Positions 33,952-39,227 of a stretch of DNA of 64,000 bases are shown here, piece after piece. The stretch is from an uncultured Pseudomonadota bacterium (GTDB lineage Bacteria; Pseudomonadota; Alphaproteobacteria; Acetobacterales; Acetobacteraceae), in contig CAWHUC010000002.1 in assembly GCA_963832525.1 (NCBI GenBank), positions 5,563-69,562 of the forward strand, read 5' to 3'. Below the pieces are notes generated by a model, which did no database searches, had not been told where the DNA came from, and saw only the letters and a list, made by a program, of their open reading frames with translations. Made by a program: the position numbers and the translations under genes. Every line of letters starts with the position of its first letter. Within the stretch, counting starts at the first letter, position 1.

Positions 33952-35244
33952 CTATCCCAGCAGGCCGGCGCCGGAAAACCCGCCGAACACGCCGAGGACG
34001 CAGGTCACCACGGCCACCGCCAGCACCAGCCCGTAATACCAGCCTCGCAGCCGCCACGCCGGTGGCAGCGCCCGCCGCGCCAGCGCGATCAGGAAACCGA
34101 GCACCACCGGCAGCAGCAGCGCGTTCATCACCTGCACGCCCACATTGAGCGCCACGAGGTCGGGCCAGAACCCCACCACCAGGCAGCCGCCCACCACGCA
34201 GACCGCATAGACGCCGTAGAACCACCGCGCCTCCAGCGGCCGGTATTCCAGCGAGCGGCGATAACCCGACACCTCGCCCAGCCCCCAGGCCAGCGCCAGC
34301 GAGGCGACGATCGCCGCCACCATCCCCGCCCCCAGCACGCCGGCCCCGAACACCGCGTTGCCGACTGCAGTGCCAAGGAACGGGGTCAGCGCCCCGGCCA
34401 TCTCCCCCACCGTGTTCAGCGAGGCATCCGGGCTGGCCCGCCCGATCGTCGCCGCGCAGGCGATCAGCACCGCGGCCATCACGAGCTGGGTGATGACCGC
34501 GCCCACCGCCGTGTCCCAGCGGGCAGCCGACAGATGCTCGGGCCGCAGCTTCTTATCGGCGACGGCGGACTGCTGATAGAACACCATCCACGGCATGATG
34601 ACCGCGCCGATATTGGCCGCGACCAGGTAGACGTAGGCCTTGTTGGCGAACGGAATCGACAGCGCGCCGGCCGCGAGCGCGTGCGGATCCGGATGGGCCG
34701 CCCAGGCGACGAAGAAGAAGGCGAACTCGAACAGGCCGACGAAGATCGCGGCCCGCTCCACGCGCCGGTAGGACCCGGTCAGCACCACGGCAAGCAGCGC
34801 CACCGCGGCGATCGGCAGGGTCAGGCCGCGCGGCAGGCCATAGAGTTCCCCCACGCCGGCGACGCCCGAGAACTCGGTCAGCAGTGCGCCCACGGTGGCG
34901 ACGCCGAGCCCGGCGGCGGAGACCCAGGCCCAGGCCGGTCCGAAGGTCTCGCGGATCAGCTCGCCATGGCCGCGGCCGGTGAAGATGCCGAGCCGCACCG
35001 TCAGCTCCTGCACCACGTAAAGGATGGGGATCAGGACGAATTGCAGGGCCAGCAGCCGGTAGCCCCATTGGACCCCGCTCTGCCCGGCGGTGATGACGCT
35101 GCCGACGTCGGTATCGGCCAGCATGACGACGATGCCGGGGCCGAAGACGGCGACGAACCGGGCCAGGCGGCGGCCTGTCGCACTGCGGCCGGTAGGATCG
35201 AGCGCGGCCGGGGCGGAGGCGTTCATCGGTTTGCGGTCCGTCAT
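33952..35244 (-). CDS. mntH: NRAMP-family divalent metal (Mn2+/Fe2+) transporter
   Basis: FGPGIVVMLADTDVGSVITAGQSGVQWGYRLL...AANIGAVIMPWMVFYQQS, hallmarks of Nramp/MntH; 430 aa, polytopic. Confidence 0.85.
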   Translation of the reverse strand: MTDRKPMNASAPAALDPTGRSATGRRLARFVAVFGPGIVVMLADTDVGSVITAGQSGVQWGYRLLALQFVLIPILYVVQELTVRLGIFTGRGHGELIRETFGPAWAWVSAAGLGVATVGALLTEFSGVAGVGELYGLPRGLTLPIAAVALLAVVLTGSYRRVERAAIFVGLFEFAFFFVAWAAHPDPHALAAGALSIPFANKAYVYLVAANIGAVIMPWMVFYQQSAVADKKLRPEHLSAARWDTAVGAVITQLVMAAVLIACAATIGRASPDASLNTVGEMAGALTPFLGTAVGNAVFGAGVLGAGMVAAIVASLALAWGLGEVSGYRRSLEYRPLEARWFYGVYAVCVVGGCLVVGFWPDLVALNVGVQVMNALLLPVVLGFLIALARRALPPAWRLRGWYYGLVLAVAVVTCVLGVFGGFSGAGLLG

Positions 35245-35455
35245 CTCGGAGGGGGGCGCCGGCGTAATTGCGAAGTATTCTTAGTTGCAGCTACCGTGAT
35301 GCATGGCTGAGTGTCAAGCCGTGATGCGGACGTGGCTGCCATACCGGCCGGCGAGAACACGAGGGTCCTACCAACTCCCCCCGCGGAACCGCGAGTGGGA
35401 CGCACGTGCGTCTGGCCCCAGGGGTCTGCGCGGTACCACGTTTTTCTTTCATATA

Positions 35456-35484
35456 TTGACACACAGAAAGGGAAACGCTATAAA
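35456..35484 (+). promoter_or_regulatory. near-consensus sigma70 promoter TTGACA-N17-TATAAA
   Basis: TTGACA at 35456-35461, exactly 17 nt spacer, TATAAA at 35479-35484, 34 nt upstream of ATG 35518, in a 40% GC stretch (24/60 G+C in 35441-35500). Confidence 0.55.
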
Positions 35485-35517
35485 TGCCGGTAGCGAGCAG
35501 TCCGAAAAAGGCCCGAG

Positions 35518-36811
35518 ATGACCGCCAGCATCCACGCCCTGCATCCGCGATCACCCCCTGTCGCGGGATTCCTGAGAATCGGGCACACCGGGCATCGAAA
35601 GCTCGAACACCTCCATGCGGCGGGTCGCTTTCCTTACCGGCGCGTGGGGTTCGACGCCGCGCATGTCTGCGATCAATCCGAACTTCTGAAGACCTTGATC
35701 GCCGGCGGATGCGAAATCGTGCTGGACCCAAATTTCGCGGAAATGGCAATGCCCGGCCGCTTCGGGTCGGCGGCCGGCAAGCTGCCTTGGGCCAACCCCA
35801 ATCGACCCTGGCAAGAGTCAGATTTTGGCCGCATTCGAAACCTGGACACGGCCAAGGCGATTGCTGAATTTGCAATCCGACACGGAGTAAACGTGGTTCT
35901 CACTCCCGCGCATCTCATTGAGTTCCTGCCCGAACTCCTGGCGGAATATCGATCTTCGCATGTGCGAGGACCTTCGTCGTGAACTCGATCGCCTTGGCGG
36001 AGCAGGTATCGCCATCGATTATCAGCTCATAACGACGAACGCGCTCCTGAAGGATGCTCAAGCCCGGGATGATCTTGTCGCCGACGTCGATACCATGCCT
36101 ATCCAAAATGTTTGGCTTCGGACCTCCGGCTTTGGGGCAACAGAGACCGGCGTAGGCACGAGGCATTTCATCGAAGCTGTTCGTGGCCTGCATCGCATGG
36201 ATCGGCCTCTGGTGGCCGATTGCGTCGGCGGCTTTGCCGGCCTCGCAGCTTTGGCCTTCGGCGCCGTTGGCGGGATCAGCCATGGCGCAGGCCAAAAGGA
36301 GAGCTTCGATGCAAACGATTGGAAGGCTCTACCTTCCGACAAAAAAGGCGGATCCTCTTCAAGAATATACGTTCCCGATCTCGACCGCCACTTCAAAGAA
36401 GACCACCTGTCTGTGATACTTGCTGCGAGGGGCGGACGGTCGCGTTTCGGCTGCAATGACTCCAGCTGCTGCCGCGATGGGATCGAAGATATGGTGGAGA
36501 ATCCCGGCGCTCATTTCATCACTCAGCGCGCACGTCAACTCGAAGACCTTTCCCGTGTACCGGAGACGCGGCGGGCGGAGCACTTTCTATTGCGACACCT
36601 GGACCCAGCTATCCGCTCGGCGCGTGTGGGGACTCGGTTGGATATCTCCGAGCCAAGAGTGAAGGACACCGTTGAAAAAGCGAAGGCCAGGCTGATCCGC
36701 TTGCGTGACGCGCTTGCAGACCTGCAGGTTAACGACGCCTCCGCAACGCGGTCACGACCACCCGCCTTCCGGGGTGGCCCAAGATCGGCCGGTGTCGTGC
36801 TGGCGCATTGA
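35518..36811 (+). CDS. uncharacterised ~430-aa protein, first gene of the islet operon (two overlapping ORFs 35518-35982 and 35918-36811, probably one gene split by a frame break near 35930-35945)
   Basis: No family recognised by eye. Short hydrophobic strand-like segments (FLRIGH, EIVLDPN, VVLTPAH, AIDYQLI, VWLRTSGFG, LVADCVGG, GGISHG) alternate with helices, followed by the Cys cluster FGCNDSSCC (36452-36472). GC is lower than the flanks. The stop overlaps the start of the next gene. Confidence 0.55.
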
Positions 36812-36813
36812 CC

Positions 36814-37152
36814 ATGGCAAGCTCCGTTGCCAGGATTATCGAAGATCTGCGGGACCGTGGCGGCCTCAAAGGCACGGATGTGGCGAATGTCGCCGCCGTG
36901 TCTCCGGCGACCGTCTCACGCTGGACCTCCGGAAAAGCCAGTCCGCACCCGAAGACGCAGCTTTTGATCTCCGATCTCCGCTACATCGTCGACCGACTGG
37001 CCGACTTCTATTCGCCGGATGAGACCCGGCTCTGGCTCTACTCCAAGCATCGTCTGCTGAACGCCGAGCGCCCGATCGACCTTATTCACAATGGACGGGC
37101 CGACGCAGTGTTGGCCGTGATCGAAAGCCTGGACGAAGGGGCTTATACTTAG
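36814..37152 (+). CDS. Xre-family HTH antitoxin with C-terminal DUF2384-type domain (MbcA/ParS-like)
   Basis: HTH LKGTDVANVAAVSPATVSRWTSGKASP plus the C-terminal RLWLYSKHRLLNAERPIDLIHNGRADAVLAVIESLDEGAY signature; alternative TTG at 36808. Confidence 0.8.
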   Translation: MASSVARIIEDLRDRGGLKGTDVANVAAVSPATVSRWTSGKASPHPKTQLLISDLRYIVDRLADFYSPDETRLWLYSKHRLLNAERPIDLIHNGRADAVLAVIESLDEGAYT

Positions 37153-37155
37153 ACC

Positions 37156-37723
37156 ATGAGCGGTTCAGATCGGGTCCACGATCGAGCCATTCTGGACGCG
37201 CTGGAATCGAGCGGTGCACGTCCCTTCGCGGGCGACGTATGGCGGATCACCCGCTCGGGCCGGGACGCTCTCCGCGGCTCAAGCGCGAACGGCAGGTGGA
37301 GCCCGCAGGGCGCGTTCGAGGTTCTCTATACCAGCCTCGAACGCACCGGCGCGCTCGCCGAAATCGGATACCGTCTTGCGCTCGAGCCGGTCTGGCCAAG
37401 CCGAACTCGAACACGAGATCCACACGCTCGCGGCCCGCACCGAACGGACCCTGCGCTTCGCCGACGTCGCGGCGCTGACGCCGCTCGGCGTCGATATCGC
37501 CCGCTACGACACTTTCGACTATGGCGCGACCCAGGCGATCGCGGCAGTAGCACATTTCCTGGAGTTCGACGGGCTGCTGGTGCCCAGTGCGCGGGCGCCC
37601 TGCGCCAACCTGGTGGTCTTCCTGGACCGACTGGCCGCCGGCGCCAGCTTGGTGGTGCAGCACAGCCAGCCGGTGGACTGGGCCGCCTGGCGCCGCACTG
37701 CCCGCGCGCCCGCGCGGCGTTGA
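37156..37723 (+). CDS. RES-domain toxin (MbcT/ParT-like), frame broken near 37400
   Basis: N-terminal part [45 protein letters not shown] (Arg, Glu region). The C-terminal part, in the frame of ORF 37214-37723, reads ...[40 protein letters not shown] (Ser motif). It starts 3 nt after the antitoxin stop. Confidence 0.8.
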
Positions 37724-37754
37724 AAACCCGCCCCGGATAGACCAGAACCCGCCC

Positions 37755-39227
37755 ATGCCCGAGCTCTTCCTGCACAACAGCCTGACCCGGAAGCGGGAGC
37801 GCTTCGTCCCGCTCGATCCCACGCATGTGCGGATGTACGTCTGCGGGCCGACCGTCTACGACCTCGCGCATCTCGGCAACGCGCGCCCGGTGGTGGTGTT
37901 CGATGTGCTGGCGCGGCTGCTGCGCCTTCTGTTCCCGCGCGTGACCTATGTGCGCAACATCACCGACGTGGACGACAAGATCAACGCTCGCGCCGCCGAA
38001 AGCGGCGAGCCGATCGTCGCCATCACCGCGCGGACCATCGCCGATTTCCACGCCGACATGGCCTCCCTCGGCGCCCTGCCGCCCGACGAAGAACCCCGCG
38101 CCACCGACCACGTGGCGGAAATGATCGCGCTGATCGAGCGGTTGATCACCTCCGGCCATGCCTACGCCGCCGACGGCCACGTGCTGTTCCAGGTCGCGAG
38201 CTTCCCCGACTACGGCCATCTTTCCGGCCGCTCCCCGCGCGAACTGCTGGCCGGCGCGCGGGTGGAAGTGGCGCCGTACAAGCGCGACCCCGGCGATTTC
38301 GTGCTGTGGAAACCTTCCACGCCCGACCTGCCCGGTTGGGACAGCCCCTGGGGCCGCGGCCGGCCGGGCTGGCATATCGAGTGCTCGGCGATGTCCTGGC
38401 GCTACCTCGGCGAGAGCTTCGACATCCACGGCGGCGGGGCGGACCTGATCTTCCCACACCACGAGAACGAGCGCGCGCAGAGCCTGTGCGCCTTCCCGCA
38501 CGGCGGCTTCGCCCACGTCTGGGTGCACAACGGCATGCTGCTCGTGAACGGGGAGAAGATGTCGAAAAGCCTCGGCAATTTCCGCACGGTGCGCGACGTG
38601 CTGGCCTTGGCACCGGGCGAGGCGATCCGGCTGCTGCTGCTGAAGACGCACTACCGGGCCGCGCTCGATTTCACCGAGCCTGGGCTTGCCGAGGCGCGCC
38701 ACGAGCTGGACCGGTTCTACCGCGCGCTGGACGCGGCGCCGGACATGCCCCTGGACGCCCCCCTGGGCGCCCCCCTGGGCGCCCCCCCGGCTGCGGAGGT
38801 GCCCGAGCCGGTGCTGGCCGCCCTGTGCGACGACCTCAATACCCCGGCCGCGCTGGCCGCGCTGCACGCGCTGGCGGACGCCGCGCTGGCCGGCGATCCG
38901 GCCGCGGCGGGCGGGATGCGCGCGGCAGGCGCCGTGCTCGGCCTGCTGGGGCAGACGCCGCAGGCGTGGTTCCAGGGCGGGGCCGAGGCGGGTGGGGTTG
39001 ACCCGGCGGCGATCGAGACTGCCATCGCCGACCGCAAGGCGGCCCGCGCCGCGCGCGATTTCGCCCGTGCCGACGCGATCCGCGCCGCGCTGGAGGCCCA
39101 GGGAATCCTCCTGGAGGACGGCCCGGGCGGCACGACTTGGCGCCGCAAGCCTGTCGTCGCGACGGGTCCGGCCGCCCCACTGCGTCCCACCGCGGCCGCG
39201 CCGCGCGCCCGCACGGCGGAGCGATGA
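37755..39227 (+). CDS. cysS: cysteine--tRNA ligase
   Basis: [18 protein letters not shown] (HIGH-type), [17 protein letters not shown]; ATG 37755. Confidence 0.95.

Follow-up and report, generated by a model that had tools for sequence, protein, structure and literature searches.

An uncharacterised protein with a predicted (beta/alpha)8 barrel is encoded first in a three-gene variant of the RES-Xre toxin-antitoxin operon

The window analysed here, a stretch of 64,000 nucleotides from an uncultured alphaproteobacterium of the Acetobacteraceae (GenBank assembly GCA_963832525.1, contig CAWHUC010000002.1), contains an islet of low GC content (0.60 for its first two genes, compared with 0.71-0.72 in the flanks) that holds a cassette of three genes on the forward strand (Table 1). 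The second gene, xre, encodes a helix-turn-helix (HTH) protein that matches the Pfam models HTH_31, HTH_3 and Xre_MbcA_ParS_C and aligns over its full length with the Mycobacterium tuberculosis antitoxin MbcA (PDB 6FKG chain C; E=1.2e-17). The third gene, RES, starts 3 nucleotides after the antitoxin gene and encodes a RES-domain protein, an intact orthologue of which matches the toxin MbcT (6FKG chain A; E=4e-5). By homology to these proteins, the pair is predicted to consist of a toxin that phosphorolyses NAD+ and an antitoxin that neutralises it. The first gene, which we call X, is the subject of this study. X lies next to the antitoxin and toxin genes and is translationally coupled with them, all three are served by one conserved promoter/operator, and the operon is a three-gene variant of the RES-Xre (MbcTA-like) toxin-antitoxin module that carries a new protein family.

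Table 1. Features of the islet in the window (positions count from the first letter of the window), strands of X (residue numbers) and further copies of the operator-like repeat (positions within the respective loci)
Feature	Position	Strand	Remarks
Low-GC islet	35250..37750	.	Three-gene cassette only; between NRAMP-like gene (33952-35244, minus) and cysS
Promoter with operator-like inverted repeat	35447..35484	+	TTTCA 35447-51; -35 TTGACA 35456-61; (A)GAAA 35465-69; -10 TATAAA 35479-84
Gene X	35518..36811	+	430 amino acids; metal-cluster protein with predicted (beta/alpha)8 barrel, uncharacterised family; split here by 1-nucleotide insertion
Asp70 codon	35725..35727	+	C-terminal end of strand 3, motif VLDPN; Asp in 114/115 (99%)
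CCC run	35929..35931	+	Likeliest place of the surplus base that moves the frame from 1 to 2, from homologue alignment
Asp234 codon	36218..36220	+	End of strand 7, motif LVAD-x-x-GG; Asp/Glu in 113/115
Metal-type cluster	36452..36514	+	Cys312 36452-54; Cys317 36467-69; Cys318 36470-72; His332 36512-14
MbcA-like Xre antitoxin	36814..37152	+	112 amino acids; HTH and C-terminal toxin-binding domain; ATG 2 nucleotides past X stop
RES-domain toxin, MbcT-like NAD+ phosphorylase type	37156..37723	+	Split by one extra A at 37404/37405; Pfam RES PF08808 on both halves
X barrel strands 1-4 (DSSP, AlphaFold2 model)	residues		FLRIGH 16-21; VGFDA 42-46; EIVLD 66-70; VVL/PAH 126-134
X barrel strands 5-8 (DSSP, AlphaFold2 model)	residues		AIDYQLITT 165-173; NVWLRTS 197-203; LVAD 231-234; GGISH 252-256
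TTTCA-N12-16-TGAAA at other loci	L001 7931-7953; L121 4445-4468; L123 4421-4443; L124 3363-3385		Others as well

In the window, gene X appears as two overlapping open reading frames (ORFs), 35518-35982 in frame 1 and 35918-36811 in frame 2. A homologue search with the joined protein returned 284 significant relatives among the candidates sharing sequence words with it, nearly all of them 425-435 amino acids long, with a query coverage of 97-100% and an identity of 57-69%, annotated as "hypothetical protein" and without a Pfam domain. Full-length homologues of 428-433 amino acids (100% coverage of the merged protein) cross the junction without a break and, because they align straight across it, the two ORFs are judged to be one gene, as an earlier note on this DNA, made from the letters alone, had proposed. 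The family consensus at the junction is THLxExxxxxW-RxIDLR, which is represented in the window by AHLIEFLP in frame 1 and PNSWRNIDLR in frame 2, and the alignment of homologues locates the surplus base between ~35921 and ~35938; deletion of one C from the CCC run yields HLIEFLPNSWRNIDLR and the 430-residue protein. Contigs of ~93% identity from two soil sequencing runs labelled RNA-Seq cross this site with one base fewer, and the short-read contigs of the same strain end at 35923 and resume at 35946, leaving 35924-35945 uncovered. The rest of the X ORF has no other lesions and keeps every conserved residue. The earlier note had blamed the split on a general indel load, which turned out to be low: between 27000 and 46900, comparison with the same-strain short-read contigs revealed a single indel, at 37404 in the RES gene. 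This base, located in an AA run, is missing from otherwise 100%-identical short-read contigs of two independent metagenomes, and without the extra A the gene encodes an intact protein of 188 amino acids. Because the toxin is intact in these contigs, we attribute the RES frameshift to an assembly error or a minor variant.

The two lesions raise the question of whether the islet in this genome is a dead, decaying cassette, in which both frameshifts are real and the genes have no current function. Such decay would be in keeping with the X frameshift being carried by both the window and a database copy (P0007, 283 amino acids, on a contig of 252,633 bp), with both frameshifts of the 20-kb region falling within the islet, and with the decay of X in other genomes (L032-L034, described below). 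Against it stand the intact toxin in the two other metagenomes and the nature of the X frameshift site, which is a homopolymer run and coincides exactly with the breaks in the same-strain contigs, in an ORF that is otherwise undamaged. We regard a dead cassette as a possibility to be taken seriously but as unlikely, and an assembly error or minor variant as a more likely cause of the X frameshift than a fixed pseudogene.

The decisive feature of X, overlooked in the earlier note, is its genetic company: as judged from gene order across genomes, X is an obligatory operon partner of the MbcA/MbcT-like RES-Xre pair. The order X-xre-RES, with gaps of 0-45 nucleotides, was found by tblastn in every one of ~30 loci that reach downstream, among them 21 GTDB species from the Sphingomonadales, the Hyphomicrobiales and metagenome-assembled genomes (MAGs) of Rhodospirillales type, and it recurs in four unrelated chromosomal contexts. 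It is intact in all checkable loci above ~50% identity and in most distant ones, including four of ~30% identity (L035, L036, L118 and L127). Cultured bacteria carry it on complete plasmids, namely Aminobacter aminovorans pAA03 (beside repABC), Dinoroseobacter shibae pDSHI06 and, in an actinobacterium, Gordonia sp. pSMJS1.1, and the NCBI annotation (PGAP) names the partners on plasmids "antitoxin Xre/MbcA/ParS..." and "RES family NAD+ phosphorylase". The presence of X also varies with the clade of the antitoxin. Among plasmid antitoxins with at least 39% identity to the window copy, 14 of 16 have X upstream, the two exceptions being those of Pannonibacter; none of the plasmid antitoxins of 34% identity or less was matched in the X tblastn of plasmids, and the one such locus that was inspected (M. 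avium) was without X. We conclude from these sequence comparisons that the antitoxin clade tracks the presence of X. Measured against the L001 copy, the antitoxins are 70-95% identical, X 50-75% and RES 52-79%; the higher conservation of the antitoxin would fit a protein that has several partners.

Several observations concern the places in which the cassette resides. In several alphaproteobacterial MAGs (L005, L006, L008 beside atpC) it lies at the 3' end of the ATP synthase operon, and in L009/L021 (5042-9615) it is flanked by two partial atpD copies, an arrangement that hints at a recurrent insertion site or a duplicated target. On D. shibae pDSHI06 (L123 6732-9876) it stands beside a Gabija-like pair of a UvrD helicase and an ATP-binding protein, and in L035 (7310-10326) beside a Lactamase_B/anti-Pycsar-like gene and a DUF4365 gene.

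The three genes share their control region as well. The promoter in the window has a 17-nucleotide spacer, and its -35 element is bracketed by an inverted repeat, TTTCA/(A)GAAA, with one mismatch in the window copy. Alignment of 17 upstream regions revealed the pattern TTGC-TTT-ATTTCA-TTGA-TGAAA-AAATGTAA common to X loci, in which TTTCA and GAA are invariant, and the motif TTTCA-N12-16-TGAAA occurs essentially once per cassette locus, 35-90 nucleotides 5' of the X start, plasmids and distant members included. The same motif precedes xre in the Pannonibacter locus that has no X. We predict TTTCA...TGAAA to be the operator of the HTH antitoxin and, since it lies upstream of X, X would belong to an autoregulated operon. 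In the two soil runs labelled RNA-Seq, single contigs of a 93%-identical relative comprise the 3' end of X, all of xre and the 5' half of RES, which suggests that in soil a close relative transcribes the three genes together. The ~93%-identical soil contigs cover window positions 35466-37403, and the promoter-proximal 84 nucleotides (35382-35465) are replaced in that relative by 87 unrelated letters.

These data bear directly on the objection that X is an unrelated neighbour that merely hitch-hikes with the RES-Xre pair. Solo relatives of X do occur beside ParB/RepB-family genes, and RES-Xre pairs without X exist. An accidental neighbour is, however, hard to reconcile with an order, strand and near-zero spacing held from 75% to ~28% identity in two phyla, with a promoter and operator shared upstream of X, or with an antitoxin clade that co-varies with the presence of X, and we consider this explanation highly improbable.

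Loci in which X is damaged or missing bear on its place in the operon. Three loci combine an intact xre and RES with a decayed X: L032 (6013-6912) has lost 120 residues (37-156) and L034 (6001-6992) 96 residues (134-229), both by deletions that look in-frame, and L033 has a frameshift (~6654); all three carriers are MAGs. The Pannonibacter plasmids keep the operator, xre and RES, and X is absent. Cells can thus live with the toxin in the absence of X, which is therefore probably neither the antitoxin nor required to neutralise the toxin, and these gene contents identify it as an accessory component of the operon. Relatives of X also exist on their own, without xre-RES. They match only residues ~39-355 and have a different C-terminus, which suggests that only the form of X linked to the toxin-antitoxin pair has the C-terminal helices. 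Solo X genes (L119 5001-7778; L126 654-3371; L120 5001-7292) lie, apparently on plasmids, beside convergent ParB/RepB-family genes, with a DUF5615 gene in two of the three loci, and the solo protein of L120 (P0248) has lost the cysteine cluster described below. Since DpdA, the DNA preQ0 transglycosylase of the Dpd island and of phages such as 9g, works with a ParB-like protein, DpdB, a DpdA-DpdB-like pair was considered for these neighbours and rejected: their matches are above-threshold but generic (the ParB/RepB/Spo0J partition model), and one of them is unrelated to the other two beyond the domain. A plasmid-partition context is the simpler reading of the solo neighbourhoods.

Far from being an orphan, as the earlier note had it, X belongs to a large family of 924 clusters at 50% identity with E<=1e-3, of which 318 reach E<=1e-30, distributed over chromosomes and plasmids of Alphaproteobacteria and Actinobacteria. 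Whether the query was a single sequence, 24 members or 115 members, searches of Pfam, NCBIfam, PADLOC, PHROGs and the PDB sequences returned noise only. Among the PADLOC-DB v2 defence models X had no match and the antitoxin gave only weak, HTH-level matches; 50,697 phage records held no match to X, and we found no domain fusions in longer members of the family. X represents a large uncharacterised protein family without a family model or name, and our searches found no literature on it.

The predicted structure of X is that of a TIM barrel. AlphaFold2, run on an alignment of 115 sequences, the most distant of which are ~27% identical to the query, produced a model with a mean pLDDT (predicted local distance difference test) of 95.8 and a predicted TM score (pTM) of 0.93, in which eight strands alternate with helices; an earlier model from 24 close sequences had reached a pLDDT of only 69. 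Each of the eight hydrophobic segments picked out in the earlier note falls on one of the eight DSSP strands of the predicted barrel, so the alternation of strands and helices and the (beta/alpha)8 fold that it had suggested are both reproduced by the model, as is the helical tail. Strand 8 is followed by an insertion, a beta-hairpin (282-293), short helices and a loop that carries Cys312, Cys317 and Cys318; after this loop come a helix beginning at His332 and then three long helices up to residue 405. The cysteine cluster thus sits in the model in an inter-helix loop, past the hairpin. The earlier note had placed its codons correctly (36452-36472) and had misread its spacing, which is C-x4-CC and not C-x5-CC. 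Its proposal of a metal site C-terminal to the barrel gains from the alignment, in which C312, C317, C318 and H332 are conserved at 90-94% across the 115 sequences, far above chance; the metal-type cluster could hold an iron-sulphur centre or another metal instead of zinc. Taken together, the model and the alignment describe X as a cytosolic (beta/alpha)8-barrel protein with a Cys3-His metal-type cluster and a three-helix tail.

Active sites of TIM barrels lie at the C-terminal ends of the strands, and conservation in X is concentrated there. Residues conserved at 90% or more are Arg20, Asp70, Trp91 (115/115), Pro130, His132, Asp145, Arg153, Trp199, Pro230, Gly248, Gly256, Phe263, Cys312, Cys317, Cys318, His332 and Arg352; in addition, position 261 is acidic (Glu/Asp) in 102 of the 115 sequences and position 201 basic (Arg/Lys) in 110. 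The near-invariant Arg20, Asp70, Trp91, His132, Trp199/Arg201, Asp234 and Glu261 all map at or just past C-terminal strand ends in the model. By general knowledge of the fold, the glycine-rich stretches following strands 7 and 8 resemble the phosphate-binding loops of TIM barrels.

To place the barrel among known structures, we compared the model with the PDB using Foldseek. The top 17 matches were all Zymomonas mobilis tRNA-guanine transglycosylase (TGT), with E-values from 1.8e-6 to 9e-6, ~12% identity and target-normalised TM scores of 0.46-0.53 over 406-439 aligned columns, a TM of ~0.5 indicating a shared fold only. Next, from E 9e-6, came the carboxyltransferase of oxaloacetate decarboxylase (2nx9), GH10 xylanases and pyruvate kinases, and the lower-quality first model gave the same ranking. 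Among the predicted viral structures of BFVD, the best matches were unnamed phage proteins, and archaeal-virus and phage models named "queuine tRNA-ribosyltransferase" appeared at E 2e-3 to 2e-2. Profile comparison detected no such relationship: the Pfam TGT model PF01702 did not match X at E<=10 with either 24 close or 115 diverse members, and the X family profile retrieved no TGT chain from the PDB sequences. The missing sequence link carries little weight, because DpdA of phage 9g, an accepted TGT-fold protein, is missed by PF01702 as well (Escherichia coli Tgt scores 560 bits). Likewise, hhalign gave no significant match of X to TGT or DpdA, a result that is uninformative because the positive control failed: with shallow profiles (DpdA relatives of at least 62% identity), DpdA and Tgt themselves aligned over 17 columns with 2% probability. 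The profile searches linked X to no known family, and the top Foldseek matches are to TGT.

X, by its model, and TGT (PF01702; for example, 2Z1V and 1Q2R) are (beta/alpha)8 barrels of similar size followed by a hairpin, three cysteines and a histidine at a comparable place in the chain, and C-terminal helices. In each, strand 3 leads into a conserved aspartate, in the context of a hydrophobic strand followed by D-(S/P)-(G/N). In Z. mobilis TGT the catalytic pair consists of Asp102, the general acid/base, and Asp280, the nucleophile, and the zinc subdomain contains three cysteines and one histidine (CxCxxC...H). The earlier note had likened the ADCV segment of X to the catalytic FDCV strand of TGT, an equivalence that is doubtful: Asp234 of X ends strand 7, but in Tgt the nucleophile (MFDCV) comes after strand-like segment eight, as counted on the E. 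coli sequence, not on a solved structure, and the end of strand 8 in X offers His255 and Gly256, with Glu261 soon after. The better positional counterpart is Asp70 of the strand 3 motif VLDPN, which would correspond to the aspartate in LTDSGG of Tgt and FLDSGAF of DpdA and is, by position, a plausible equivalent of Asp102. X differs from TGT in the spacing of the cluster (Cx4CC-x13-H in X and CxCxxC-x25-H in TGT), in the second acidic residue, which lies on another strand, in an insertion of ~50 residues between strand 8 and the hairpin, in a far longer helical tail and in the lack of a queuosine or archaeosine gene context.

The comparison with DpdA is similarly divided. Both X and DpdA are divergent with respect to the Pfam TGT model, which they escape, and both are found on mobile elements, and the motif pairs VLDPNFA/FLDSGAF and LRxSGFGAT/KVHGFGIT are alike, although sub-significant in hhalign. 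On the other hand, phage 9g dpdA adjoins 7-deazaguanine synthesis genes, whereas queC/D/E, folE and DpdB/DpdC-type genes were found beside X in none of ~35 inspected loci; the phage 9g DpdA sequence lacks the Cx4CC cluster; and DpdA is common in phages, in whose records X was not found.

Could X nonetheless be a true member of the TGT/DpdA superfamily, exchanging a base in tRNA or DNA through a covalent ribosyl-aspartate mechanism and holding a structural zinc site, so that the cassette couples nucleic-acid modification to a toxin-antitoxin pair? That the best PDB matches are TGT structures over the whole length of X, the post-barrel region included, speaks for it, as do the viral transglycosylase models among the BFVD matches, the parallel at Asp70, the order strand 8/beta-hairpin/Cys-rich loop/His helix, which resembles the one seen in the E. 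coli Tgt sequence, and the precedent of phage 9g DpdA, in which a PF01702 miss is not disqualifying. It is opposed by the absence of profile-level similarity, the different cysteine spacing, the second conserved aspartate on strand 7 rather than strand 8, the missing deazaguanine genes, the absence from phage records and the small Foldseek margin of TGT over other barrels, and we consider membership distinctly unlikely. Of the resemblance to TGT and DpdA that the earlier note had sensed, the structural part stands, in that TGT structures are the best PDB neighbours, while the narrow margin, the lack of a profile link and the lack of deazaguanine genes count against a closer relationship. Because several marks of the superfamily either failed to appear in X or differ in it, X is not filed here as a TGT or a DpdA. 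Genuine base exchange in tRNA or DNA is possible but, because the gene context is missing and the motif match imperfect, less likely than an accessory role in the toxin-antitoxin system.

Such an accessory role is the reading that we favour. In this reading, which we think probable by a modest measure, X is the first cistron of a conserved, autoregulated X/MbcA-like/MbcT-like operon that forms a small mobile cassette, and it adds an accessory, enzyme-like layer of control to the depletion of NAD+. X would be an active enzyme, or at least a ligand binder, whose pocket accommodates a phosphoribosyl or nucleotide ligand, and might perform or sense chemistry at a ribosyl N-glycosidic bond, its substrate being an NAD-derived nucleotide or a nucleic-acid base; the same chemistry is that of the closest structural neighbours of X and of NAD+, the substrate of the toxin. 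X could in this way govern the timing or the consequences of NAD+ depletion by the RES toxin, whether by sensing, as an enzymatic second antidote or as a co-effector, and its helical tail would be the likely contact with the antitoxin-toxin complex. The cassette as a whole moves between plasmids and chromosomal islets. Several points weigh against this reading: no profile links X to any family; TGT leads the unrelated TIM barrels by less than one order of magnitude in E-value; the adjacent Cys317 and Cys318 are unusual for a zinc site; and the library source of the "RNA" runs is given as metagenomic, so that some DNA may be present in them.

A bolder version of the same idea is that X founds a new TGT-like branch of ribosyl-transfer enzymes, acting on an NAD-derived nucleotide (for example, ADP-ribose-1''-phosphate or nicotinamide set free by the RES toxin) or on a nucleic-acid base and thereby gating, reversing or amplifying NAD+ phosphorolysis, which would make the cassette an unrecognised three-component addiction or defence system. 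We put this forward tentatively and hold it to be doubtful. About as doubtful is a non-enzymatic alternative, in which X is a sensor or scaffold whose degenerate barrel binds a phage protein, a small molecule or some other trigger and releases or restrains the toxin via the tail in a three-component abortive infection. The placement of cassettes in defence or mobile contexts, such as those of pDSHI06 and L035, would agree with a sensor, as would the dispensability of X for viability and the conservation of the antitoxin above that of X and RES, as expected of a protein with several partners. Its weakness lies in X itself, whose near-invariant Asp, His, Glu, Arg and Trp at strand ends and glycine-rich phosphate-type loops are typical of an active enzyme, and which has no PADLOC match. 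The enzyme-like accessory component remains our preferred reading.

The surroundings of the islet add some observations of their own. At 37721-37760 the RES stop lies only ~33 nucleotides from the ATG (~37756) of cysS, whose product, cysteinyl-tRNA synthetase, is recognised by its conserved N-terminus MPELFLHN...; the islet abuts this essential gene and may supply or displace its promoter. A search for flanking direct or inverted repeats that would mark an insertion of the islet found only short, chance-level matches, and an Rfam scan across the islet found nothing. An 18-nucleotide inverted repeat (35232-35249/35513-35530, 83% complementary), which may be due to chance, takes in the start codon of X and that of the divergent NRAMP-like gene (CCGAGATGACCG on either strand).

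The NAD+-depleting systems MbcTA and NatRT have been connected with persistence, the maintenance of plasmids and possible antibacterial strategies, and are regarded as modules of two genes. Our analysis indicates that a whole RES-Xre clade in Alphaproteobacteria and Actinobacteria carries a conserved, enzyme-like first gene. If X does modulate the toxin, it would offer a way to study how toxins of the NAD+ phosphorylase type are set off or counteracted; should it prove to be a TGT-like enzyme of a new kind, it would enlarge a superfamily whose members are so far known only to exchange bases in tRNA and DNA. The annotation of the window is corrected as well, in that the two "hypothetical" ORFs are merged into a single gene and the toxin gene, split in the window, is found whole in otherwise identical short-read contigs of two other metagenomes.

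The second and third genes of the cassette resemble MbcT-MbcA of M. tuberculosis (Rv1989c-Rv1990c), NatT/NatR, ParT/ParS and the RES-Xre pair of Pseudomonas putida in combining an Xre antitoxin with a RES toxin, in placing the antitoxin gene 5' of the toxin gene and in their frequent location on plasmids. RES-Xre systems have been described as gene pairs (PMC2701414, PMC12457610), and our literature search found no description of a third component. Whereas those systems are bicistronic, the cassette comprises three genes under one conserved promoter/operator, and it has a barrel gene of 430 codons between the promoter/operator and the antitoxin gene, conserved along with the antitoxin clade. 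Like the toxin-antitoxin-chaperone (TAC), omega-epsilon-zeta and PaaR-PaaA-ParE systems, the cassette adds a third conserved gene to a type II operon. The third component of those systems is a SecB-like chaperone or a small transcriptional regulator, whereas that of the cassette is predicted to be a large enzyme-like barrel, encoded first in the operon and dispensable for neutralisation.

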